This document shows, piece after piece, positions 10,873 through 64,000 of a stretch of DNA of 64,000 nucleotides. The position numbers and the translations under genes are program-made. Source of the DNA: Vicinamibacterales bacterium (GTDB taxonomy: Bacteria; Acidobacteriota; Vicinamibacteria; Vicinamibacterales; UBA2999); contig JBFWNR010000002.1 in the NCBI GenBank assembly GCA_050250955.1, forward strand, positions 537,634 through 601,633. The letters are read 5' to 3'. The notes beneath the pieces were generated by a model, which had not been told where the DNA came from, ran no database searches, and saw only the letters and a program-made list of their open reading frames with translations. How positions within the stretch are numbered: position 1 is the first letter of the stretch; every line of letters starts with the position of its first letter.

Positions 10873-10878
10873 TATAAT
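10873..10878 (+). promoter_or_regulatory. Perfect -10 hexamer TATAAT in the divergent KAS / methyltransferase intergenic region
   Basis: ccTATAATac at 10871-10880 within otherwise GC-rich DNA. The reverse complement reads TATTAT, a one-mismatch -10 for the minus-strand KAS operon. No convincing -35 on either side. Confidence 0.35.
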
Positions 10879-10898
10879 ACGTGCCTCGCCGCCCTGCC

Positions 10899-11612
10899 AT
10901 GCCCCGCTCCGATCGCCCGCGTGCCGGCCTCGCCATGGCCTGGCTCGGCGGCGTCGCGTTCGCGACCTCGCTGGCCGTCTACGTGCACTTCTTCGCGGTG
11001 CGACTGGCGACGCCCGGACCGCCGACCTGGCCGCGACCGGTGGCGCTGGCGTGGAACGCGGCCCTCTTCGTGCTCTTCGCCGCCCATCACAGCGCGATGG
11101 CCCGGCCCGCCGCCAAGGCGTGGGTCGGCCGCCACCTCCCCGCCGCCTTCGAGCGCACCACCTACGTGTGGGTGGCGGCGACCTTGCTGGTGCTGGTGAC
11201 GGTGCTGTGGCGGCGCGTGCCGGGTGTGGTCTACGTCGTTCCGGGTGCCGGCGCCGTCGCGCTGCACCTCCTGCAGTCCGCCGGCGTCGTGCTGACCCTC
11301 GCCGCGGCTCGCGTGCTGAGCGCGACCGACCTGGCCGGGATCCGCCAGGCGCAGCGCCGTCCTGCGGTCGCCGACGTCCGGGTCGTGTGGCCGTACACGC
11401 TGGTCCGGCACCCCATCTACCTGGGCTGGGCGCTCACCGTGCTGGCGGCGCCGACCATGACCCTCGACCGCCTGTGGTGGGCGCTGCTCAGCACCGGCTA
11501 CCTGGTCATCGCCACGCCTTGGGAGGAGCGTAGCCTTTCCGCTGTCGCGGGGCCGGCGTACCGGGCGTATTGCCGCCGGGTGCGCTGGCGGATGGTTCCG
11601 GGCCTGTACTGA
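10899..11612 (+). CDS. PEMT/ICMT-like membrane methyltransferase family protein
   Basis: The track ORF starts at GTG 10881, only 2 nt after the TATAAT, so ATG 10899 (or ATG 10935, MAWLGGVAF...) is more plausible. Has 4-5 TM helices and the C-terminal signature YTLVRHPIYLGWAL...PWEERSLSAVAGPAYRAYCRRVRWRMVPGLY. Confidence 0.75.
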   Translation: MPRSDRPRAGLAMAWLGGVAFATSLAVYVHFFAVRLATPGPPTWPRPVALAWNAALFVLFAAHHSAMARPAAKAWVGRHLPAAFERTTYVWVAATLLVLVTVLWRRVPGVVYVVPGAGAVALHLLQSAGVVLTLAAARVLSATDLAGIRQAQRRPAVADVRVVWPYTLVRHPIYLGWALTVLAAPTMTLDRLWWALLSTGYLVIATPWEERSLSAVAGPAYRAYCRRVRWRMVPGLY

Positions 11613-44910: not shown

Positions 44911-45270
44911 GTGTCCGCCTTCGTCCCGCTGACGTCCGACGCCGACGTCGACCGCCTGCTGGCCGCGTCCCACGACGCTCCGGTCATCGTGTTCAAGCAT
45001 AGCGAATCGTGCGGCGCGAGCTGGATGGCCGAAGCGTCGCTGGCCGGCCAGCGCCTGCCGGTGCCCGTACATCAGGTGGTCGTCCAGCGGCATCGGCAGA
45101 CCTCGGCGCTCATCGCCGAGCGGCTCGGGATCCGTCACGAGTCGCCGCAGGTGATCATCCTGGCCGGCGGACGGGCGGCGTGGCACACCTCGCACGCCGG
45201 GGTCACCCGCGAACGCGTCCTCGACGCCTGGCAGCGGCTGGCGCTGCCGCCAGCGACGGTCAGCGCCTGA
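44911..45270 (+). CDS. YtxJ-like thioredoxin-fold protein (monothiol, DUF2847 type)
   Basis: In-frame GTG 44911. PVIVFKHSESCGAS...IRHESPQVIIL matches the YtxJ pattern (KHSxxCxxS...HESPQ). Confidence 0.75.
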   Translation: MSAFVPLTSDADVDRLLAASHDAPVIVFKHSESCGASWMAEASLAGQRLPVPVHQVVVQRHRQTSALIAERLGIRHESPQVIILAGGRAAWHTSHAGVTRERVLDAWQRLALPPATVSA

Positions 45271-46105
45271 TCGCGACGATCGACGCCACGTCGCGATCGT
45301 CCACGACGCCCTCGCGGGCGCGCCGGATCTCGAGCGGCGCGACCAGGACCGGCAGTTCGCCGGGCTGCAGCAGGAAGGCGGGATTGGTCGGACGGCCGCG
45401 CGCCGCCTGTGCGGTCGTGAACGTCTCGTAGATCAGCAGGCCTCCCGGCGCCACCGCCGCGACCAGCGCCGGCATCAGCGGCCGGTGCAGGTAGTGCGTC
45501 ACCAGCACCAGATCGTAGGCCCCGGGTTCGAGCACGACGCCGGGCCGTTCGAGGTCGTCGACCCGCGCCGTCACCGGGTGGCCCATCGCCCGTGCGATCC
45601 GCTCGAGGCGCGTCATCGCCGCCTGGTCGCGATCGACCGCGGTGACGGCGAACCCGGCCGCGGCGAACAGCAGCGCGTGGCGCCCGCGGCCGGCGGCGAC
45701 GTCGAGCATGCGCATCCCCGGACGCAACAGGTCGGCGTTGTCGAGCAGCCAGCGGCTGGGACCTTCGGCCGGCGCGGGGCCGAAGTCGCGCGGGCCGGAC
45801 CAGGTCGCCAGCCCGCCGCGCAGTTCGAGGACCGCGGCCGCGCCGGCCGACGCCAGCACCTCGGCGGCGAGCCGGCTGCGGACGCCGTGCTCGCAGTAGA
45901 CGAGCAGGGGCCGATCGTCGGGGAGCACCGCCGGGCCGGCGGCGACGACGTCCACCGGCACCAGCCGGGCGCCGGGAATGTGACCCAGCCCGGCGTACTC
46001 CTGCGGAGTGCGGACATCGACCACCGTGACCGCGCCGGCGGCGACGAGACGGGCCGCCTCGGCGTGGTCGACGACCCGCGGCGGCGGCGACGGCTCGCGG
46101 CTCAT
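45260..46105 (-). CDS. Rhodanese domain fused to a class I SAM methyltransferase (TehB-like)
   Basis: 281 aa. The rhodanese part has VVDVRTPQEYAGLGHIPGA...LLVYCEHGVRS (active-site Cys loop). The methyltransferase part has MLDVAAGRGRHALLFAAAGFAVTAVDRD...YDLVLVTHYLHRPL...GGLLIYETF. Confidence 0.8.
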   Translation of the reverse strand: MSREPSPPPRVVDHAEAARLVAAGAVTVVDVRTPQEYAGLGHIPGARLVPVDVVAAGPAVLPDDRPLLVYCEHGVRSRLAAEVLASAGAAAVLELRGGLATWSGPRDFGPAPAEGPSRWLLDNADLLRPGMRMLDVAAGRGRHALLFAAAGFAVTAVDRDQAAMTRLERIARAMGHPVTARVDDLERPGVVLEPGAYDLVLVTHYLHRPLMPALVAAVAPGGLLIYETFTTAQAARGRPTNPAFLLQPGELPVLVAPLEIRRAREGVVDDRDVASIVAIRR

Positions 46106-46109
46106 CCGG

Positions 46110-46514
46110 TCACGACGCGACCCGTTCGGCGAAGGTCAGCAGGTGGCCGTCGGGGTCGTAGATGGCGAATTCCCGCATCCCGTAGAACTGGGTCCGCAGC
46201 GACATGGCCAGCGGGGCGTGCGGCGTCAACTGGGCGTGCAGGGCGTCGACCCCGTCGACCGCGATGAACAGCGTGGCGGTGCCGCCGAACTGCGGGGACG
46301 CCAGGCTCGGGATGTCCCTGGCCACCGCCGCCGCGTCGTTCAGGAACACGGTGACGTCGCCGCGCTCCAGCCAGACGAACTCGAACGGCGCCGCGTCGGG
46401 AACGGTCATCTTGACGGTGAAGCCCAGCACGTCGCAGTAGAAGCGGCGGCTGCGTTCGATGTCGGCGACGATGAGGTTGGGGGTGACGCCCTTGAAGGCG
46501 ACCGACGTGGTCAT
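46110..46514 (-). CDS. VOC family protein (glyoxalase/bleomycin-resistance fold)
   Basis: In-frame ATG 46514. MTTSVAFKGVTPNLIVADIERSRRFYCDVLGF...MREFAIYDPDGHLLTFAE. The stop lies 5 nt before the rhodanese-MTase start. Confidence 0.85.
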   Translation of the reverse strand: MTTSVAFKGVTPNLIVADIERSRRFYCDVLGFTVKMTVPDAAPFEFVWLERGDVTVFLNDAAAVARDIPSLASPQFGGTATLFIAVDGVDALHAQLTPHAPLAMSLRTQFYGMREFAIYDPDGHLLTFAERVAS

Positions 46515-56220: not shown

Positions 56221-58284
56221 ATGGCCATCCGCCCTGCCGTGGCACCGCCGGAATCATCGGTCGAGACGGCGTGCCCGCTCGACTGCCCCGACGCCTGCAC
56301 GCTGTCGATCACCCTGAGGGGCGGACGCATCGCCACCATCGACGGCGGCCACACCAACCCGGTCACCGGCGGCTACATCTGCGCCAAGGTCCGTCGCTTC
56401 GGGGCTCGCGTCTACGGCGACGACCGCCTGCACTTCCCCGCCGTCCGCGCCGGCGCCAAGGGCACGGCGAGCTTCCAGCGCGTGAGCTGGGATGACGCCC
56501 TCGATCGCATCGCCGAGCGGCTGTCGACGATCCGGGCCGAATCAGGCGGCGAGGCCATCCTGCCGCTGTGCTACGGCGGCTCGAACGGCTTCCTGACCCA
56601 GGACGGCGCCGACGCGTCGCTGTTCCGGCGTCTCGGCGCCGCCCGCCTGGCCCGCACCGTGTGCGCCGCCCCGACCGGTGCCGCCAACCAGGCGCTGTAC
56701 GGCAAGATGGCGTCGGTCGTCTATCAGGACTATCCCGAGGCGCGGTTGATCCTGCTGTGGGGCGTCAACCCGTCGGCCTCCGGCATCCACCTGATGCCGT
56801 ACCTGAAGGATGCCCGCGCCCGCGGCGCGACCATCGTGGTCGTCGATCCCCGCGCGACGACGGTCGCCCGCCAGGCCGACATCCACCTGGCGATCCGGCC
56901 GGGAACCGACGTCGTCGTGGCGCTGGCCATCCATCGGCACCTGTTCACGAGCGGGACCGCCGACGAGCGCTTCCTCGCCGAGCACACCACCGGGGCCGAG
57001 CAGCTCCGCCGGCAGGCCGAGCCGTGGACGTTCGCCCGCGCCGCCGAGGTCAGCGGCCTCGGGGCCGAGGACATCGAACGCGTCGCCCGTCTCTACGCCA
57101 CGAGCCAGCCGGCGCTGATCAAGTGCGGGTGGGGCCTCGAACGCAACCGCAACGGCGGCAACGCCGCACTGGCGGTGCTGGCCCTGCCGGCGGTGGGCGG
57201 CAAGTTCGGCGTCCGCGGCGGCGGCTATTCGATGAGCAACTCGGCGTCGTGGGGGATCGCCCGCTCGTGGCTGCGCGACGCGGAACCGCAGACGCGCGTG
57301 GTGAACATGAACCAGGTCGGTCGTGAACTGACCGACCCGACCGGGACGCCGACCCGCGGGCTGTTCGTCTACAACTGCAATCCGGCGGTGACCCTGCCCG
57401 ATCAGCAGCGCGTGCTGGCCGGGCTGGCCCGCCCGGACCTGTTCACGGTGGTGTTCGATCAGGTGTTGACCGACACGGCCGCCTTCGCCGACGTGGTCCT
57501 GCCGGCGACGACCTTCCTCGAACACTACGACTTCGCCAAGGGGTACGGCGCCCTCAGTCTGCAGCTGGCCCGGCCGGCCATCGAGCCGATCGGCGAATCG
57601 CGGCCGAACGCCGACGTGTTCCTGGCGCTGGCGGCGCGGCTCGGGCTCGACGCGCCCGACGATCCGGCCGACGAACTCGAACAGATGCTCGGAGTGATCG
57701 CCGCTCTGCCCGGGGCCGTGGGCGATGAGATCCGTGCGCACGGCCACGCGACGCCGCCGCACGGCGGCCGGCCGGTGCAGTTCGTGGACGTGTTTCCCCA
57801 GACGCCGGATCGGAAGGTGGCGCTCTGGCCGGAAGGGATCGCCAGCGACGCGCCGCTGGGGCTCTACGCCTACGTCGCCGATCCGGGGACGCCCGAGTTT
57901 CCCCTGGCGCTCATCTCTCCCGCCTCGGAGCGCACCGTCAGCTCGACGCTCGGCGAGTTGGATCGCCCACGTGTGCTCCTCGAGATGCACCCCGACGACG
58001 CGACGCCGCGCGGCATCGGTGACGGCGACGACGTCCGCGTCCACAACGCGCTCGGCGCCATGGAGTGCGGCGTGAAGGTCACGCCGCTGGTCCGGCCCGG
58101 CACCGTGTCGTTTCCGAAGGGCGTGTGGCGGCGGCACACCGGCAACGGCCTCACCGCCAACGCCCTCGTCCCCGACACGCTGACCGACCTCGGCGGCGGT
58201 GCGTGCTTCAACGACGCCCGAGTGGAGGTGGCGCTGGTCGCCACCTCCCGCCGATCGCGCACCCGCCCGGAGCGGGTGCAATAG
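56221..58284 (+). CDS. Molybdopterin-dependent oxidoreductase (MopB superfamily, N-terminal 4Fe-4S)
   Basis: 687 aa. CPLDCPDACTLSI...YICAKV is the Cys cluster. LWGVNPSAS and VVVDPRAT. C-terminal molydop-binding beta barrel (MHPDDA...GDGDDVRVHN). The predicted Mo-ligand position carries Cys (TVCAAPTG). Confidence 0.9.
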   Translation: MAIRPAVAPPESSVETACPLDCPDACTLSITLRGGRIATIDGGHTNPVTGGYICAKVRRFGARVYGDDRLHFPAVRAGAKGTASFQRVSWDDALDRIAERLSTIRAESGGEAILPLCYGGSNGFLTQDGADASLFRRLGAARLARTVCAAPTGAANQALYGKMASVVYQDYPEARLILLWGVNPSASGIHLMPYLKDARARGATIVVVDPRATTVARQADIHLAIRPGTDVVVALAIHRHLFTSGTADERFLAEHTTGAEQLRRQAEPWTFARAAEVSGLGAEDIERVARLYATSQPALIKCGWGLERNRNGGNAALAVLALPAVGGKFGVRGGGYSMSNSASWGIARSWLRDAEPQTRVVNMNQVGRELTDPTGTPTRGLFVYNCNPAVTLPDQQRVLAGLARPDLFTVVFDQVLTDTAAFADVVLPATTFLEHYDFAKGYGALSLQLARPAIEPIGESRPNADVFLALAARLGLDAPDDPADELEQMLGVIAALPGAVGDEIRAHGHATPPHGGRPVQFVDVFPQTPDRKVALWPEGIASDAPLGLYAYVADPGTPEFPLALISPASERTVSSTLGELDRPRVLLEMHPDDATPRGIGDGDDVRVHNALGAMECGVKVTPLVRPGTVSFPKGVWRRHTGNGLTANALVPDTLTDLGGGACFNDARVEVALVATSRRSRTRPERVQ

Positions 58285-58296
58285 GCCAGTCCAGGC

Positions 58297-58506
58297 TTAC
58301 GCGGCTTCGCTCGCTTCGGGCAGCTTGCCACGACCGCCGCGGCTGACCATCCCGCCCTTGCGTCCGGCGTCGCGCGCCTCGACCGACGACCATTCGTGCG
58401 CCGTGCCTTTGGCATGCGCGGCACGGCCGCCCTTGCTGGCGATCTCGCGCTGCTTCTCGGGGGACATCGATGCGAATCCTCGACGGGCCTTCGGCTTGTC
58501 AATCAT
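58297..58506 (-). CDS. KGG-repeat general stress protein (YciG-like)
   Basis: 69 aa. SPEKQREIASKGGRAAH and GRKGGMVSRGG. GAGGTG Shine-Dalgarno 7 nt upstream of the ATG. Confidence 0.8.
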   Translation of the reverse strand: MIDKPKARRGFASMSPEKQREIASKGGRAAHAKGTAHEWSSVEARDAGRKGGMVSRGGRGKLPEASEAA

Positions 58507-58734: not shown

Positions 58735-58950
58735 TCAGGAGCGGCGATCGGGCGGCGTCCTGGCGGGCCGAAAGTAGTCGCAGCCCGCGCAGTTGCTGAC
58801 GTCGAACTCGTAGCCGACGACGGGCCACAGCATCGGATGCGCGCAGTACACGAGCTGGCCGTCGATGATGGTGTGGAGCCCCAGGTCGGCTGGAACGGTC
58901 ACGGTGCGGCGGCTGTACCAGCACACGCGATGGCGATCCTCGGGAGTCAC
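58735..58950 (-). CDS. Hypothetical small Cys-containing protein
   Basis: The track ORF starts at TTG 59001. In-frame GTG 58950 gives VTPEDRHRVCWYSRRTVTVPADLGLHTIIDGQLVYCAHPMLWPVVGYEFDVSNCAGCDYFRP. No family recognised. Confidence 0.4.
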   Translation of the reverse strand: MTPEDRHRVCWYSRRTVTVPADLGLHTIIDGQLVYCAHPMLWPVVGYEFDVSNCAGCDYFRPARTPPDRRS

Positions 58951-59012: not shown

Positions 59013-59306
59013 ATGAGCGACCGTTCCGACTCTCCCCGCCTCGTGCAATGCGTCAAGCTCCAGCAGGAGCTGCCGGGACTGGAGGCGCCGCCGTGGCCAG
59101 GCGACATCGGCCAGCGGATCTACGAGCAGGTGTCGGCCAAGGCGTGGAAGCTCTGGGAGGATCGCCAGAAGATGATCCTCAACGAATACCGCGTGATGCC
59201 CTGGCAGAAAGAAGGGCAGGAACTCATCCTCAAGCACATGGAGGAGTTCTTCTTCGGCGCCTCGGCCGCGCTGCCGCCCGGCTACGTCCCGCCGCAGTCG
59301 AAGTAG
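59013..59306 (+). CDS. yggX: Fe(2+)-trafficking / oxidative-damage protection protein YggX
   Basis: 97 aa. VQCVKLQQELPGLEAPPWPGDIGQRIYEQVSAKAWKLWEDRQKMILNEYRV...MEEFFFG. Confidence 0.85.
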   Translation: MSDRSDSPRLVQCVKLQQELPGLEAPPWPGDIGQRIYEQVSAKAWKLWEDRQKMILNEYRVMPWQKEGQELILKHMEEFFFGASAALPPGYVPPQSK

Positions 59307-59316
59307 CGGCGGGCCG

Positions 59317-60609
59317 CTACCCGCGCGCCACCGGCAGGGCCGGCTCGATGACCGGCTCGATGGCGGCGTGCGCGCGGCGCAGCGCCGCTTCCACCGCTGC
59401 CCCGTCGGCGCCGGAGGCGAACACGAACCCCAGATAGCTCGCCCCCTCGGGCAGAGCGTCCAGCAGCGCGCCGACCCGTGCGGTCACGACGACGTCGGTG
59501 ATCCCGGGCACCTGGCGTGCGGCATCGATGCCGCGCAGGTCGCGCAGCACCCCGGAACGCGGGATCGGCACCATCAGCACCCCGGTGGCGGCGCGGTCGC
59601 GACTCCAGCCGACGAGCGACTCCCCCATCGCCGCGCGCAGCAGCAGCGCCTCGAGCGACGCCGGTACGTGGTCGGGGCCGCGAAAGCAGAGCGCGCGGGC
59701 GCACAGGCCGCCGATCGGCCGCGCCGCCACCTCCAGGACGACCGGGCCGGCGTCGCCGACGCGGCATTCGGCGTGGATCGGACCGTGGCGCAGCCCGGCG
59801 GCACGCGCGGCCTGCGTGACCGCGGCGATCACCGGCAGCGCGGCGGCCGCGGTGCGCGCGGTGGGTGTGACGTAGTAGGTCTCCTCGAAGAACGGCCCAT
59901 CGAGCGGATCGGGCTTGTCGAAGATCGCCAGCACGTGCAGGCGGCCGTGGTCGAGGACGCCTTCGAGCGCGACCTCGAAGCCGGGCACGAACGCCTCGAT
60001 CTGGACCAGCCGGGCGGCGGGGTCGCGGAGTGCCTGCACGTCGGGAGCGGCCAGGACGCCGGCCACCCGCGTCAATGCGGCGGCGAGCTGTTCCGGGTCG
60101 TCGGCACGGATGACCCCGCGGCTCCCCGAGAGCACGAGCGGCTTCACCACGCAGGGGTATGTCACGTCGCGTAGCCGGTCGACCGAGGCATCCAGCGGCA
60201 CGACGCGCGACCAGGGCCCCGGCAGCCCCGCGGCGGCGATACGGCGGCGAAACCGCTGCTTGTCGCGACTCGCCCGCGCCCCGTCAACCTCGTGCCACGG
60301 CAGGCCCAGGCGCTCGGCGACCAGGGCCGCGAGCACCACCGGCCGGTCGCCCACCGCCAGCACGCCGTCGATCGGCCGGCCGTCCAGCGCGGTCGTCACC
60401 GCGGCCAGCGACCCGGCCTCGTCGTGGAAGCGGACGGCGATGGCGCGGTCCCGCCAGGGATCATCGAGGTGATCGCAGCGGTCGGTGGCGAGCACGAGCT
60501 CGACGCCGAGCGCCGTCGCGGCCTCGTCGAAGCTGCGCGTCTGATAGCCGGTGGTCGTGGCGCAGACCAGCACGCGACGTGGCTCGGAGGGTCGAGACAC
60601 GCAGTCCAT
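59317..60609 (-). CDS. ATP-grasp domain protein (amino-acid/carboxylate ligase-like)
   Basis: 430 aa, ATG at 60609. Pre-ATP-grasp RVLVCATTTGYQTRSFDEAA...IDGVLAVGD. Core KQRFRRRIAAAGLPGP...YPCVVKPLVLSGSRGVIRADD...IEAFVPGFEVALEG...GPIHAECRV...VLEVAARPIGG. Confidence 0.85.
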   Translation of the reverse strand: MDCVSRPSEPRRVLVCATTTGYQTRSFDEAATALGVELVLATDRCDHLDDPWRDRAIAVRFHDEAGSLAAVTTALDGRPIDGVLAVGDRPVVLAALVAERLGLPWHEVDGARASRDKQRFRRRIAAAGLPGPWSRVVPLDASVDRLRDVTYPCVVKPLVLSGSRGVIRADDPEQLAAALTRVAGVLAAPDVQALRDPAARLVQIEAFVPGFEVALEGVLDHGRLHVLAIFDKPDPLDGPFFEETYYVTPTARTAAAALPVIAAVTQAARAAGLRHGPIHAECRVGDAGPVVLEVAARPIGGLCARALCFRGPDHVPASLEALLLRAAMGESLVGWSRDRAATGVLMVPIPRSGVLRDLRGIDAARQVPGITDVVVTARVGALLDALPEGASYLGFVFASGADGAAVEAALRRAHAAIEPVIEPALPVARG

Positions 60610-60610
60610 C

Positions 60611-60645
60611 CTAATCGCTAGCCGCTAGCCGCTAGCCGCTACGAG
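60611..60645. repeat. CTAG heptad repeat, five units (CTAATCG CTAGCCG CTAGCCG CTAGCCG CTACGAG)
   Basis: Fills the 38-nt spacer between the second stop of the radical SAM gene (60650-60648) and the ATP-grasp ATG (60609). Minus strand reads TGA TTC TCG TAG CGGCTAGCGGCTAGCGGCTAGCGATTAGG ATG. Confidence 0.9.
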
Positions 60646-60647
60646 AA

Positions 60648-62027
60648 TCATAGGAGAGCCACCTGCTCTCCCGTCGGTTCCGCTCAACAGTACCAGGGCT
60701 CGGTCAGGTAGGGAATCGTCGCCCGCGACCGTCGCGGCGGCTCGGTGCGCGCCGGCATGCCCCGGGCGCGATCGGCCAGCTGCCGCACGGCGGCGAAGAT
60801 CGCGCCGCGATCGCCGCCGGCCGGTGCCGCGGCGACCAGCCGCATGGCCTCGCGCTGCAGGTCATCCATGGCCGGATCGTCGTGGCGCCACGGGTGCGTC
60901 AGCGACCGGGCGTCGAACGCTCCCACGCGCCGCCGCACGTCGTCGAGTTCGAGCAGCCGCGAGCGCGCGGTGACGAGCAGGCGGAGGGTCAGCTGCACCG
61001 GCGCCACGTGGCCGACCAGGTCGAGGCGCTCCACCTCGTCGAGGAACGCCGCATAGCCGTCGCGGGTCGTCCACGGCGTGAAGGCGATGAAGGTCGGCGA
61101 GAGCGCCAGCCCGACGTCGCGGCACCGCGCCACGACCGCCGCGACGTCGGCCGCCGTGTGCCCCTTGGCCAGACGCGCCAGCACCGCGTCGTCGAACGAC
61201 TCGACCGCCGTGGTCACGAATTGGCACCCGGTGTCGCGCAGGACCGGCAGCGCGGCATCGTGGGCGCGGAGGTGCTCGACCTTGATCGTGACGTCGTAGG
61301 TCAGCGCCGGCCAGGCAGCGTGCAGGGCCTCGACGACACGGCGGGCATGGGTCGGCGCATTGAGGAAGTCGGGATCGCCGAAGCTGATGTGCGCGGCGCC
61401 GGCGGCCACCTGGGTGGCGACGTCGGCCATCACCACCTCCACCGGCACGACGCGGAAGCGGCCGTCGTAGACCGGCACGATCGGGCAGTGCCGGCAGCGG
61501 TGCTTGCAGCCGCGCGACGCCTCGGTGGCGCCGGCGGTGACCAGCGTGCCGTCGGTCCGCCGCAACCGGGCGTAGGCGGTGAGCGGCGGCAGGTCGCGGC
61601 GATCCGGCGGGATGAACGCCAGCCGCGGGAGCGGGGCCGGGGGCGGCGTGCCGAGGGCGCTGCCGGCCGCCGCCGCGGCGGCGAGATCGACCAGCGTCGC
61701 CTCGGCCTCGGGCCCGACGACGGCGGTGATGCCCGCCGCTTCGAGCTCGACGCGGTTGAGCGGCGCGTACAAGCCGTAGGCGCACATCGGCAGCGACGGC
61801 AGCCGCTGGCGGATGGCGGCGACGACCGGCAGGGCGAGCCGCGTCGCCGTGTGCATCGGCAGGTGCACCGCGACCAGCGTGACACCGTCGAGCGCCGACG
61901 AGGGCAGCCGCGCCAGCGACAGGTCGTGGGCCCGGACAGCGAACCCGGCCCGCCGCAGCCACGCCGCGGGCGAGGCCAGTCCGAACGGCTGGCGGCCGAG
62001 ATCGTACGCCGACAGCAGCAGGACCAG
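60648..62027 (-). CDS. B12-binding-like / radical SAM protein with C-U-A-E-P tail (putative selenoprotein)
   Basis: Track ORF 60684..61868 (GTG start, stops at TGA). Radical SAM Cx3Cx2C in ASRGCKHRCRHCP. Upstream, the same frame stays open to 62051 and encodes the coding-like STLVLLLSAYDLGRQPFGLASPAAWLRRAGF.... There is no ATG, GTG or TTG there, so CTG 62027 is the proposed start. Downstream read-through gives U-AEPTGEQVALL, then TGA at 60650-60648. Confidence 0.75.
60652..60672 (-). promoter_or_regulatory. Bacterial SECIS-like hairpin downstream of the in-frame UGA
   Basis: Minus-strand RNA: UGA GCGGAACCGAC G-GGAGAGC-AGGUG-GCUCUCC-U. It has 7 Watson-Crick pairs plus a closing G-U and a 5-nt loop containing GGU. 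The stem begins 11 nt after the UGA. Confidence 0.6.
60684..60686 (-). other. In-frame TGA, candidate selenocysteine codon (C-U-A-E-P)
   Basis: Minus strand reads TGT TGA GCG GAA CCG. See the CDS 60648..62027. Confidence 0.65.
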
Positions 62028-62031
62028 GGTG

Positions 62032-63519
62032 CTACCCCGCCGGCTCGTCGGTCAGCCGGCTCATCGGCTTGACGAAGAGCGCCAGGACCAGACCGGCCGC
62101 GATCGCGAACGCGCCGACCACGCCGAACAGTGTCGGCAGGGCCATCGACTCGTAGAGCCCGCCGATCCGCCCGCCGATGAAGTTGCCGACCGATGTGCCG
62201 AGGAACCACACGCCCATCACCAGGCCGGCGATCCGCGCCGGCGCCAGCCTGGTCATCGCGCTCAAGCCGACCGGCGACAGCGACAGTTCGCCCATCGTGT
62301 GCAGCAGATAAGTGAGCACCAGCCAGAGCGGGCTGGCGAGCACGCCGGCTTCGGCGGCGCGCGCCGGCGGCACCAGGACGACGAAGCCCAGTCCGACGAG
62401 CACCAGCCCCCAGACGAACTTGCCGGGACTGGTCGGCTCCAGACCGCGCGCCCCGAGCGTCACCCACAGCCAGGCGAACACCGGCGCGAGCGTGAAGATG
62501 AAGAACGAGTTCACGCTCTGGAACCAGCTGCTCGGAAACGGCAGCCCGAAGACTTCGGTCCGGGTGTCGCGATCGGCGAAGAGATTGAGCGTCGAGCCGG
62601 CCTGCTCGAACACCGACCAGAACAGCGCCGAGGCGAAGAACAGCACGCCGATCACGTAGAGGCGGCGGCGCTCGGCCGGCGTCCAGTCGCCGGCGAAGAA
62701 CAGCCAGCCGAAGAACACGACGGTGCTGACCAGCAGCGCGACCCCGGCGGCATCGGCCACCGCGACGGCCGTGATCGGCAGGGCGCCGCTGGCGCCGCCC
62801 AGCCCGACGACGGCGGCGAGGCCGAGGGCGATGGCGCCCCACAGCCCGGCCTGGCGCCGCGCCACCGCCTGGGCGGCCGGGGCGGCCGCCGGGTGCAGAC
62901 CGGCCTCGCCGAGCAGGCGGTTCCCGGTGGCGACGTACTGGATGAGGCCCAGCGTCATGCCGACGCCGGCCGCCGCGAACCCGGTGTGCCAGCTCACCCG
63001 CTGGCCCAGGTAGCCGCAGACCAGCGGCGCCAGGAACGCCCCGAGGTTGATGCCCATGTAGAAGATCGAGAACCCGGCATCACGGCGCTGATCCTCGGGC
63101 CGGTAGAGGTGTCCGACGATCACCGAGACGTTGCCCTTGAGCAGCCCGGTGCCGACGACGATGAAGGTGAGGCCGAGGTAGAAGGTGGCCTGGGTCGGAA
63201 TCGCCGCGGTGAAGTGGCCGGCGGCGATGATGACCCCGCCCCAGAGCACCGCCCGCCGCGGGCCGATCAGACGGTCGGCCACCCAGCCGCCGGGCAGCGC
63301 CGCCATGTAGGCCATCGAGGTGTAGAGCGCGTAGATGGCGCCGCCCTCGGCGGCCGACAGGCCCAGGCCGCCGGCGGCGAGCGGCGCCGTGCAGTAGAGC
63401 AGCAGCAGCGCCCGCATGCCGTAGAAACTGAAGCGCTCCCACATCTCGGTGAAGAAGAGGGTGGAGAGGCCGCGGGGGTGACCGAAAAAGGCGGTGTCCG
63501 ACGAGGGCGCCTGGGCCAT
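62032..63519 (-). CDS. POT/PTR2 family proton-dependent di/tripeptide transporter
   Basis: In-frame ATG 63519. FFGHPRGLSTLFFTEMWERFSFYGMRALLLLY and GGWVADRLIGPRR are PTR2 signatures. About 14 TM helices. Confidence 0.9.
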   Translation of the reverse strand: MAQAPSSDTAFFGHPRGLSTLFFTEMWERFSFYGMRALLLLYCTAPLAAGGLGLSAAEGGAIYALYTSMAYMAALPGGWVADRLIGPRRAVLWGGVIIAAGHFTAAIPTQATFYLGLTFIVVGTGLLKGNVSVIVGHLYRPEDQRRDAGFSIFYMGINLGAFLAPLVCGYLGQRVSWHTGFAAAGVGMTLGLIQYVATGNRLLGEAGLHPAAAPAAQAVARRQAGLWGAIALGLAAVVGLGGASGALPITAVAVADAAGVALLVSTVVFFGWLFFAGDWTPAERRRLYVIGVLFFASALFWSVFEQAGSTLNLFADRDTRTEVFGLPFPSSWFQSVNSFFIFTLAPVFAWLWVTLGARGLEPTSPGKFVWGLVLVGLGFVVLVPPARAAEAGVLASPLWLVLTYLLHTMGELSLSPVGLSAMTRLAPARIAGLVMGVWFLGTSVGNFIGGRIGGLYESMALPTLFGVVGAFAIAAGLVLALFVKPMSRLTDEPAG

Positions 63520-63561
63520 ACGCGCGGGTATTGTATCCTTCGCGCCAGGCCGATACCGCGC

Positions 63562-64000
63562 ATGCCACTCGACGAATACCGCAGGAAACGCGACTTCACC
63601 AAGACACCCGAGCCGTCGGGCGAGCCCGGCCCGCGGCCGGCCGACACCAGCCGCTACTTCTGCGTCCAGAAGCACCTGGCCAGCCATCTCCACTACGACC
63701 TGCGTCTCGAACACGACGGCGTGCTGCTGTCATGGGCGGTGCCCAAGGGCCCCTCGCTCGACACCCGCGACAAACGCCTGGCCATGCAGACCGAGGATCA
63801 TCCCTACGACTATGGGTCGTTCGAAGGGGTGATACCCGAGGGCTACGGCGCCGGCGTGGTGATGCTGTGGGACTACGGCACCTGGACCCCGGAGTCGCCC
63901 GACGTCGACGCCGCCCTCAAGAAGGGCGATCTGAAGTTCCGTCTCGACGGCTACAAGCTGAAGGGCTCGTGGGCCCTCATCCGCACCCGCGGCTACGGCG
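63562..64000 (+). CDS. ligD: DNA ligase D, 3'-phosphoesterase domain (partial, continues beyond window)
   Basis: Not in the ORF track (no stop inside the window). Own translation from ATG 63562: MPLDEYRRKRDFTKTPEP...YFCVQKHLASHLHYDLRLEHDGVLLSWAVPKGPSLDTRDKRLAMQTEDHPYDYGSFEGVIPEGYGAGVVMLWDYG. Confidence 0.85.
   Translation, partial: MPLDEYRRKRDFTKTPEPSGEPGPRPADTSRYFCVQKHLASHLHYDLRLEHDGVLLSWAVPKGPSLDTRDKRLAMQTEDHPYDYGSFEGVIPEGYGAGVVMLWDYGTWTPESPDVDAALKKGDLKFRLDGYKLKGSWALIRTRGYG

Follow-up and report, generated by a model that had tools for sequence, protein, structure and literature searches.

Does the radical S-adenosylmethionine (SAM) gene at positions 60648-62027 on the minus strand of this stretch of Vicinamibacterales DNA end where gene callers end it, at a TGA directly after a cysteine codon, or is that TGA read as selenocysteine (Sec)? 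The whole 64-kb stretch is referred to below as the window. An initial annotation, made from the sequence alone, had favoured Sec. Comparison of the locus with its relatives indicates that the gene very probably encodes a 459-residue Sec-containing member of the NCBIfam family NF040546, with the UGA recoded by way of a selenocysteine insertion sequence (SECIS) hairpin lying inside the coding sequence of the tail. The call itself adds nothing new, since the family is curated and an identical protein already bears its name in GenBank. What remains of value is the function of a very large family whose nearest characterised relative forms rare carbon-metalloid bonds.

Reading frame and family membership

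On the minus strand the frame runs through ...ATIPYLTEPWYC and then TGT (60689-60687) into the in-frame TGA at 60686-60684. The same frame continues as GCG GAA CCG ACG GGA GAG CAG GTG GCT CTC CTA, that is AEPTGEQVALL, to a second TGA at 60650-60648. The sequence W-Y-C-[UGA]-A-E-P thus occupies 60695-60675 (minus strand), and the C-terminal C-(U/C)-A-E-P motif required of the family is present. The read-through product has 447 + 1 + 11 = 459 residues. In the initial annotation the frame had been continued past the first TGA, where the open reading frame (ORF) track stops, through a C-U-A-E-P tail to the second, giving a product of about 459 residues, with a stable hairpin starting 11 nucleotides (nt) past the UGA. 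Both stops and the tail are exact to the base, the length agrees, and the hairpin lies precisely where it had been placed, with a folding energy of -13.0 kcal/mol when taken alone. The parts of the gene are as follows.

60687-62027, minus strand: radical SAM ORF as far as Cys447, which is what GenBank contains (P0001, 447 residues), with an N-terminal B12-binding-like domain and a radical SAM core
62025-62027, minus strand: apparent CTG start codon, 4 nt past the TAG stop (62034-62032) of the upstream POT gene
61485-61508, minus strand: CX3CX2C motif for [4Fe-4S]/SAM, C174-K-H-R-C178-R-H-C181, invariant in the alignment
61224-61226, minus strand: Cys268 in a T-G-C motif, invariant in family alignments A1 (10 sequences) and A3 (14 sequences)
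60684-60686, minus strand: in-frame UGA, predicted Sec residue 448; the aligned column is Cys or TGA in related loci
60651-60683, minus strand: tail AEPTGEQVALL, predicted to be translated, resembling Cys-form tails such as that of P0045, CCAEPTAEQVTLV
60652-60672, minus strand: putative SECIS-type hairpin with an 8-bp stem, GGGAGAGC/GCUCUCCU, and the loop AGGUG (60664-60660), from folding and comparison
60648-60650, minus strand: predicted true stop codon TGA, with a stop at the same position in 46 of 57 Sec forms

The extended product matches NF040546, 'CUAEP/CCAEP-tail radical SAM (seleno)protein', with 588.8 bits (E 7e-177) against a curated cutoff of 500, so the family that the initial annotation had named does exist and does take in this protein. 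Since the match joins residues 2-457 of the protein to positions 1-467 of the 468 in the model, the model includes the tail. Pfam returns the generic Radical_SAM domain only (PF04055, E 1e-12). In GenBank, the 100% identical P0001 (contig JBFXFV010000015.1 of assembly GCA_050178665.1) stops at the UGA, after 447 residues, and bears the title 'MAG: CUAEP/CCAEP-tail radical SAM (seleno)protein [Vicinamibacterales bacterium]'. No difference from NF040546 is seen at the family level; the window copy has its apparent CTG start and is stored cut at the UGA like most entries.

The family is large, with 568 matches in species genomes and 903 cluster representatives at E<1e-30, and its carriers include hundreds of soil Acidobacteria as well as members of other phyla. 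A preprint by Haft (2022; 10.1101/2022.07.06.499078) names NF040546 as an uncharacterised CU-motif selenoprotein, in keeping with the earlier statement that no function had been assigned to it. A literature text search on the family name returned that one passing mention, and its matches did not include a 2026 review on the selenoproteins of prokaryotes.

Database entries and ORF tracks continue to truncate such proteins at the UGA: ...W-[YF]-C is the end of 96 of the top 120 database homologues. These truncated entries, P0001 among them, are an argument for ordinary termination at the UGA, with Cys447 as the last residue and with a hairpin and open frame that are incidental or serve mRNA stability. 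It may be added that TGA is the commonest stop codon in the window and that no Sec machinery is seen in the window or the fetched flanks. The presence of the tail in the curated model already speaks for translation past the UGA, and the related loci speak for it more directly.

The UGA codon in related loci

The comparison took in 77 other loci from species-representative genomes and an independent set of 80 metagenome loci, targeted at a different subclade. The codon aligned with the UGA is TGA in 56 of the 77 genome loci and TGC or TGT (TGY) in 21. The metagenome loci divide into 47 with TGA and 31 with TGY (78 in all), the motif not being found in two more. Over all 157 related loci this gives 103 with TGA, 52 with TGC/TGT and two that are unreadable, the motif itself being present in 155. 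The comparison of homologues at this codon, proposed in the initial annotation, therefore yields Cys or TGA in 155 of 157 loci, with A-E-P kept.

Full-length Cys-form homologues end in ...EPWYCCAEPTAEQVTLV, ...CCAEPNSEQVTLV and the like, retaining CCAEP. Judged by alignment, their tails are plainly homologous to the sequence past the UGA of the window, a relationship that an ordinary stop does not account for. Nor does it account for the codons that follow. In all 57 Sec forms the first and second positions of the A-E-P codons are invariant and only the third position varies (entropy 0.9-1.6 bits); as a sequence pattern, variation confined to third positions is characteristic of a peptide that is translated and under selection. 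The next stop, furthermore, is fixed at exactly 11 codons past the UGA in 46 of the 57, while the tails of Cys forms are freer in sequence and length. The initial annotation had held that its reading would fail if homologues ended at the Cys with no conserved tail, or if the A-E-P codons and the hairpin were not conserved; Cys forms continue as CCAEP, and both codons and hairpin are conserved, the latter with compensatory changes in Sec forms.

On a neighbour-joining tree of 78 sequences at least 11 switches between Sec and Cys are required, and repeated turnover of this kind, as reconstructed there, is the usual dynamic of selenoproteins. It also bears on a second alternative, namely that the UGA is read through by a suppressor or near-cognate tRNA inserting Cys, Trp or Ser. 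Acidobacteria do possess tRNA(Sec)-like allo-tRNAs which have been proposed as opal suppressors (PMC5389517), and these are possible nonsense suppressors here. Against this, repeated exchange of Cys and TGA at one aligned position is typically a mark of Sec, and the second TGA of the same gene must terminate.

Two further explanations were ruled out. An alternative genetic code is incompatible with the fact that TGA terminates 14 of 22 other ORFs in the window, as well as the radical SAM gene itself, so the code is standard. A sequencing error or a pseudogene is incompatible with the recurrence of TGA in 103 independent loci. Alignment with Cys in orthologues and conservation of the translated sequence downstream, the features by which a bacterial selenoprotein is recognised, are both found, and on this comparative sequence evidence the selenoprotein reading is well supported.

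The hairpin downstream of the UGA

The hairpin GGGAGAGC-AGGUG-GCUCUCCU covers nt 15-35 counted from the U of the UGA (60672-60652). Its covariation was assessed in an ungapped alignment of the 57 Sec forms. In the helix 77% of cells are paired, compared with 43-52% after a shift of the 3' partners by one to three columns, and none of 500 shuffles matched the observed pairing or covariation. Compensatory changes are evident at pair 23-39 (CG 29, AU 14, GC 9), pair 24-38 (AU 31, GC 10, GU 8) and pair 26-36 (AU 37, GC 6, GU 5). The loop consensus is A-G-(G/U)-U-N, in which the second base (G30) is G in all 57 sequences despite occupying the silent third position in a Gln codon. Hairpin and UGA also go together: all six core pairs are present in 40 of 57 Sec forms compared with one of 21 Cys forms, and the local minimum free energy is -10.7 kcal/mol for Sec forms as against -6.7 kcal/mol for Cys forms (Mann-Whitney p = 3e-6). 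A hairpin just past the UGA, a conserved G in its loop and covariation of its stem, as looked for in a bacterial SECIS element, are thus all observed.

These results bear on both alternatives. A hairpin that co-occurs with TGA rather than TGY is poorly explained if the UGA is an ordinary stop, and, taken with the tail, it leaves that explanation very improbable. Reading by a suppressor or near-cognate tRNA is scarcely easier to credit: a hairpin spaced like a SECIS element, with G/U in its loop, is conserved with covariation specifically in the TGA forms, and since the allo-tRNAs leave a SECIS-type hairpin that tracks TGA unexplained they are only a formal alternative.

The SECIS element of E. 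coli fdhF, in which the essential upper hairpin is 11 nt from the UGA and carries G23/U24 in its loop (PMC8659212), provides the obvious comparison. Like it, the present hairpin lies in the coding sequence, starts 11 nt past the UGA and has a G and a U in its apical loop. It differs in its 5-nt loop, AGGUG, with the G-U at nt 25-26 and hence 1-2 nt farther from the UGA, and in ending 1 nt ahead of the gene's true stop.

Several observations nevertheless weigh against recoding by this hairpin. Its perfect 8-bp stem, unlike that of fdhF, is missing the bulged U17. In a single-sequence fold the 66-nt region around the UGA is not significantly stable (z = -1.05), such a fold being ordinary for DNA of 73% GC, so that the support for the hairpin comes from comparison and not from energy. 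The hairpin stands within coding sequence, and its conservation could in part reflect selection on the peptide. Rfam at gathering thresholds finds tRNA-Leu only in the window, and no SECIS family. Nor was Sec machinery encountered: selA, selB and selD are absent from the roughly 35 ORFs of the 64-kb window scanned with NCBIfam, and ARAGORN found no tRNA-Sec in the window, whose sole tRNA is the Leu one, or in any fetched locus. A tblastn search of the fetched flanks likewise gave no SelD-like sequence with an E. coli SelD query. Absence from the window and flanks is, however, uninformative with regard to the genome as a whole.

If the UGA is decoded in the established bacterial manner, SelB carrying Sec-tRNA(Sec) would bind the hairpin on the mRNA under translation and selenocysteine would be inserted. 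The enzyme would then end ...W-Y-C-U-A-E-P-T-G-E-Q-V-A-L-L and not at Cys447.

A transcription terminator was also considered for the hairpin and ruled out since there is no T-run. A few Cys-form genes keep a SECIS-like hairpin, among them those of L038 (4333-4390, GCGAGC-AGGUG-GCUCGC, six of six core pairs) and L061, which is consistent with recent replacement of Sec by Cys. A crude scan of the window for TGA codons with a coding-like upstream ORF of at least 100 codons, at least eight open codons after, a perfect hairpin at the right distance and a loop G returned three sites, of which only the TGA at 60686-60684 is preceded by Cys.

Kinship with ArsL

To what kind of enzyme is this tail attached? 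The CX3CX2C radical SAM core is present and invariant in the alignments. The second-best NCBIfam model is that of ArsL (NF040542), the RCCLKC-tail radical SAM enzyme of arsinothricin biosynthesis, with 228.7 bits (E 1e-67) against a cutoff of 450. In the representative search the bona fide ArsL P0269 (477 bits, tail KRCCIKC) was the only ArsL-type sequence in the top 150, the rest being filled by the CUAEP family. It shares 31% identity with a CUAEP family member over 424 aligned residues, up to around 40 residues before the tail.

ArsL cleaves SAM to a 3-amino-3-carboxypropyl (ACP) radical and 5'-methylthioadenosine (MTA), purifies with about one [4Fe-4S] cluster, and binds arsenite through three C-terminal cysteines whose removal or mutation kills activity (10.1101/2024.02.01.577332, 10.64898/2026.04.29.721666). 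It is the nearest characterised relative of the CUAEP family, colinear over some 420 residues at about 31% identity, and both carry a short Cys-rich motif on a C-terminal tail. Unlike ArsL, the CUAEP family has an additional conserved cysteine in the core, Cys268, the position being Leu in the one ArsL compared. The conserved non-cluster thiols of the family are then Cys447, Sec448 as predicted, and Cys268, and the last is, from its conservation, a candidate third ligand alongside the Cys-Sec pair.

The AlphaFold (AF2) model of the Cys-form homologue P0045 (predicted template modelling score 0.82) has a B12-domain-like N-terminal domain and a radical SAM barrel, in a fold resembling AprD4, TsrM, MgmA and OxsB. 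Its tail is predicted to be disordered, with a predicted local distance difference test score below 50 for residues 434-454 and 460-463. In the PDB neither ArsL nor a close relative was found, the best match being AprD4 at 18% identity. AprD4 carries a B12-binding-type domain but is not known to use cobalamin. PF02310 is recorded on a few homologues.

Gene neighbourhood

The genes that flank the radical SAM gene in the window are these.

59317-60609, minus strand: ATP-grasp L-amino-acid ligase (ATPgrasp_N, ATP-grasp_4, LAL_C2), downstream and co-directional
62032-63714, minus strand: POT/PTR2 oligopeptide:H+ symporter, upstream and co-directional
59013-59306, plus strand: 'oxidative damage protection protein' of the YggX type, active in Fe2+ trafficking, its gene convergent with that of the ligase; NF003817, 112.6 bits, cutoff 74

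Contexts in other loci were counted by tblastn with the window proteins; greedy longest-ORF clustering of the flanks was noisy, since high-GC DNA yields spurious antisense ORFs. Of the 80 genome loci, 62 encode a relative of the ligase; 55 of these have it in the same orientation and at most 350 nt downstream, and the carriers include one Rhodospirillaceae and one Eremiobacterota metagenome-assembled genome. Among metagenome loci long enough to show it, 33 of 53 have the ligase within 2.6 kb downstream. Of the homologues with solved structures, the L-amino acid ligase BL00235 matches the ligase best (3vot, E 2e-31) and BacD comes next. Methionine is the N-terminal substrate that BL00235 prefers. 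The POT relative occurs in 29 of 80 genome loci, often divergently oriented, and YggX in 53 of 80 genome loci and 34 of 80 metagenome loci.

The CTG at 62027 is the only plausible start of the radical SAM gene, ATG, GTG and TTG all being absent between the in-frame stop and the conserved N-terminus. The two closest relatives that share the gene junction (L002 and L011) also have CTG, and other homologues have ATG, GTG or TTG at the same position or one codon upstream. This suggests either translational coupling or a genuine non-canonical start. At the other end of the gene, between its true stop and the ATG of the ligase (60609), positions 60610-60641 on the minus strand consist of the heptamer TAGCGGC three times in tandem, followed by TAGCGAT and then TAGG. 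As the TAGs stand 7 nt apart, all three reading frames are closed.

A different context is seen in five Sec-form loci, where a cassette encoding CpaM and an HgcAB-like protein lies directly downstream of the radical SAM gene.

CpaM/HgcAB-like cassette: L079, 9512-12246; L083, 2561-5335; L085, 4739-6696; L089, 7494-9392; L094, 7500-9398

In all five the 'corrinoid protein-associated methyltransferase CpaM' scores 234-260 bits (cutoff 180) and the 'HgcAB-like fusion protein' 329-340 bits (cutoff 285). No L-amino-acid ligase was detected in these five loci. Since fused HgcAB proteins have no known function, with no mercury methylation in the organisms tested (PMC10087281), the linkage may be a lead to one. 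By analogy, a radical SAM paralogue of ArsL followed by a methyl-transfer module would mirror ArsL followed by ArsM.

A DUF169 gene intervenes in two of the five cassettes. Overall, DUF169 (PF02596) immediately adjoins the radical SAM gene in seven loci (L037, L049, L055, L079, L081, L083 and L113) and occurs elsewhere in the locus in three or four more (L089, L092, L140 and L148). The five copies from genome loci share 35-54% identity, except for the near-identical pair L037/L049 (98%). In Nitrospina, DUF169 has been drawn beside a UbiE-type methyltransferase and hgcA-like genes (bioRxiv 10.1101/648329).

Possible functions of the Cys-Sec tail

What might the tail do? Reasoning from ArsL, we infer that it would most simply be a mobile arm presenting a soft heteroatom substrate at the cluster. 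A tentative proposal, and a possibility at best, is that the enzyme performs ArsL-like formation of a carbon-heteroatom bond, its substrate being bound by the Cys-Sec tail, and that the amino acid so made is handled further by ligase and permease. The [4Fe-4S] cluster of the CX3CX2C motif would cleave SAM as in ArsL, where the products are MTA and the ACP radical. The flexible Cys-Sec pair, possibly together with the family-specific Cys268, would hold a soft heteroatom, whether metalloid or chalcogen, and this would receive the carbon fragment to give a 2-amino-4-X-butanoate amino acid. The L-amino-acid ligase encoded by the next gene would then join this product to another amino acid, and the adjacent POT permease would move the resulting dipeptide. 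In the subclade with the cassette, the CpaM methyltransferase and the HgcAB-like corrinoid/ferredoxin fusion would replace the ligase, paralleling ArsL followed by ArsM.

Other CU-motif proteins offer a partial parallel. Haft (10.1101/2022.07.06.499078) takes CU motifs to point to interaction with heavy metals and lists NF040546 with such proteins. As in the N-terminal extension of HgcA, in SaoL/SaoB/SaoC and in MerT-like proteins, an adjacent Cys-Sec pair is predicted on a terminal extension. Unlike those proteins, and unlike thioredoxin reductase, whose folds are unrelated, the pair here is not at the C-terminus; it is followed by the conserved A-E-P and at least eight further residues.

Several results count against the ArsL-like mechanism. 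The ArsL cutoff is missed, the C-terminal RCCLKC (CCxxC) motif of ArsL is absent, C-U-A-E-P taking its place, and arsM and arsQ are not among the neighbours, which are POT, L-amino-acid ligase and YggX instead. The linkage to the ligase is missing in 18 of 80 genome loci and may in part be inherited acidobacterial synteny, and the CpaM/HgcAB-like context does not occur in this window. SAM may, moreover, be cleaved either to an ACP radical or to a 5'-deoxyadenosyl radical.

A redox-active or cluster-ligating tail, as the initial annotation had suggested, is possible, and the homology to ArsL would point rather to a tail that binds a soft metalloid as substrate. The main functional rival is the redox form of that suggestion, in which Cys-Sec would be a swing arm like the Gly-Cys-Sec-Gly of thioredoxin reductase, its selenenylsulfide feeding electrons or a hydrogen atom to a canonical 5'-deoxyadenosyl-radical enzyme. 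In the GCUG tail of thioredoxin reductase the Cys-Sec pair sits on a mobile C-terminal arm, and Sec is mostly found at redox sites. Here the adjacent Cys-Sec would likewise stand on a C-terminal tail that is modelled as disordered, the fold groups the protein with radical SAM enzymes of the B12-domain type (AprD4, TsrM, MgmA) and their 5'-deoxyadenosyl or methyl chemistry, and the YggX oxidative-damage protein is linked. Set against this, the tail cysteines of the closest characterised homologue serve substrate binding and not redox, CU motifs elsewhere (HgcA, MerT-like, SaoL/B/C) go with metal handling, and a subclade is linked to the corrinoid methyl-transfer cassette. A redox arm is, in our view, a tentative possibility of about the same weight as the ArsL-like proposal.

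Ligation of an auxiliary Fe-S cluster by Cys447, Sec448 and Cys268, as in the methylthiotransferases or the SPASM/twitch enzymes, is less likely, indeed rather improbable. Three extra Cys/Sec residues are conserved, and MiaB turns up with the weaker hits by fold and by sequence. A disordered tail carrying two of the residues side by side, however, would provide poor binding geometry, ArsL purifies with about one [4Fe-4S] cluster and its tail serves arsenic, and no SPASM or twitch motif was detected in NCBIfam and Pfam searches of the extended protein.

Returning to the ArsL-like proposal, its broadest form would make the CUAEP-tail proteins a large ArsL-type branch that transfers the ACP group of SAM onto As, Sb, Se, Te or a metal held by the tail, the product passing into a dipeptide through the ligase or, in the subclade, being methylated by CpaM and the fused HgcAB-like protein. 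This is a speculative extension that we regard as somewhat unlikely. Were it true, the organo-element dipeptide could be a Trojan-horse antimetabolite, or else a detoxified or exported form, and fused HgcAB proteins would gain their first function. The partnerships with the ligase and with corrinoid methyl transfer make the function experimentally approachable, and yield two testable hypotheses: a new pathway to organo-element amino acids in abundant soil bacteria, and a role for the orphan fused HgcAB.

Other features of the window

A molybdopterin oxidoreductase gene (56221-58284, plus strand) lies 2.4 kb away from the radical SAM gene. Its product appears cytoplasmic and has Fe4S4, Molybdopterin and Molydop_binding domains, scoring below every equivalog cutoff. 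The gene is found in 29 of 80 genome loci, on the opposite strand and 1.6-6 kb away; with that strand and variable distance it was set aside, as synteny, from the parts of the system.

At 58735-58902 (minus strand) there is a 55-codon ORF without a family match, conserved in 16 of 80 genome loci (tblastn E<1e-5) and adjoining the gene of a KGG-repeat stress protein (58297-58506). Two further ORFs, both far from the radical SAM gene, bear on the methylation of sulfur or other chalcogens. One (45260-46135, minus strand) has both a rhodanese-like N-terminus and a SAM methyltransferase domain of the TehB kind, and the other (10878-11612, plus strand) resembles the methanethiol S-methyltransferase MddA, with 127 bits, below the cutoff of 270.

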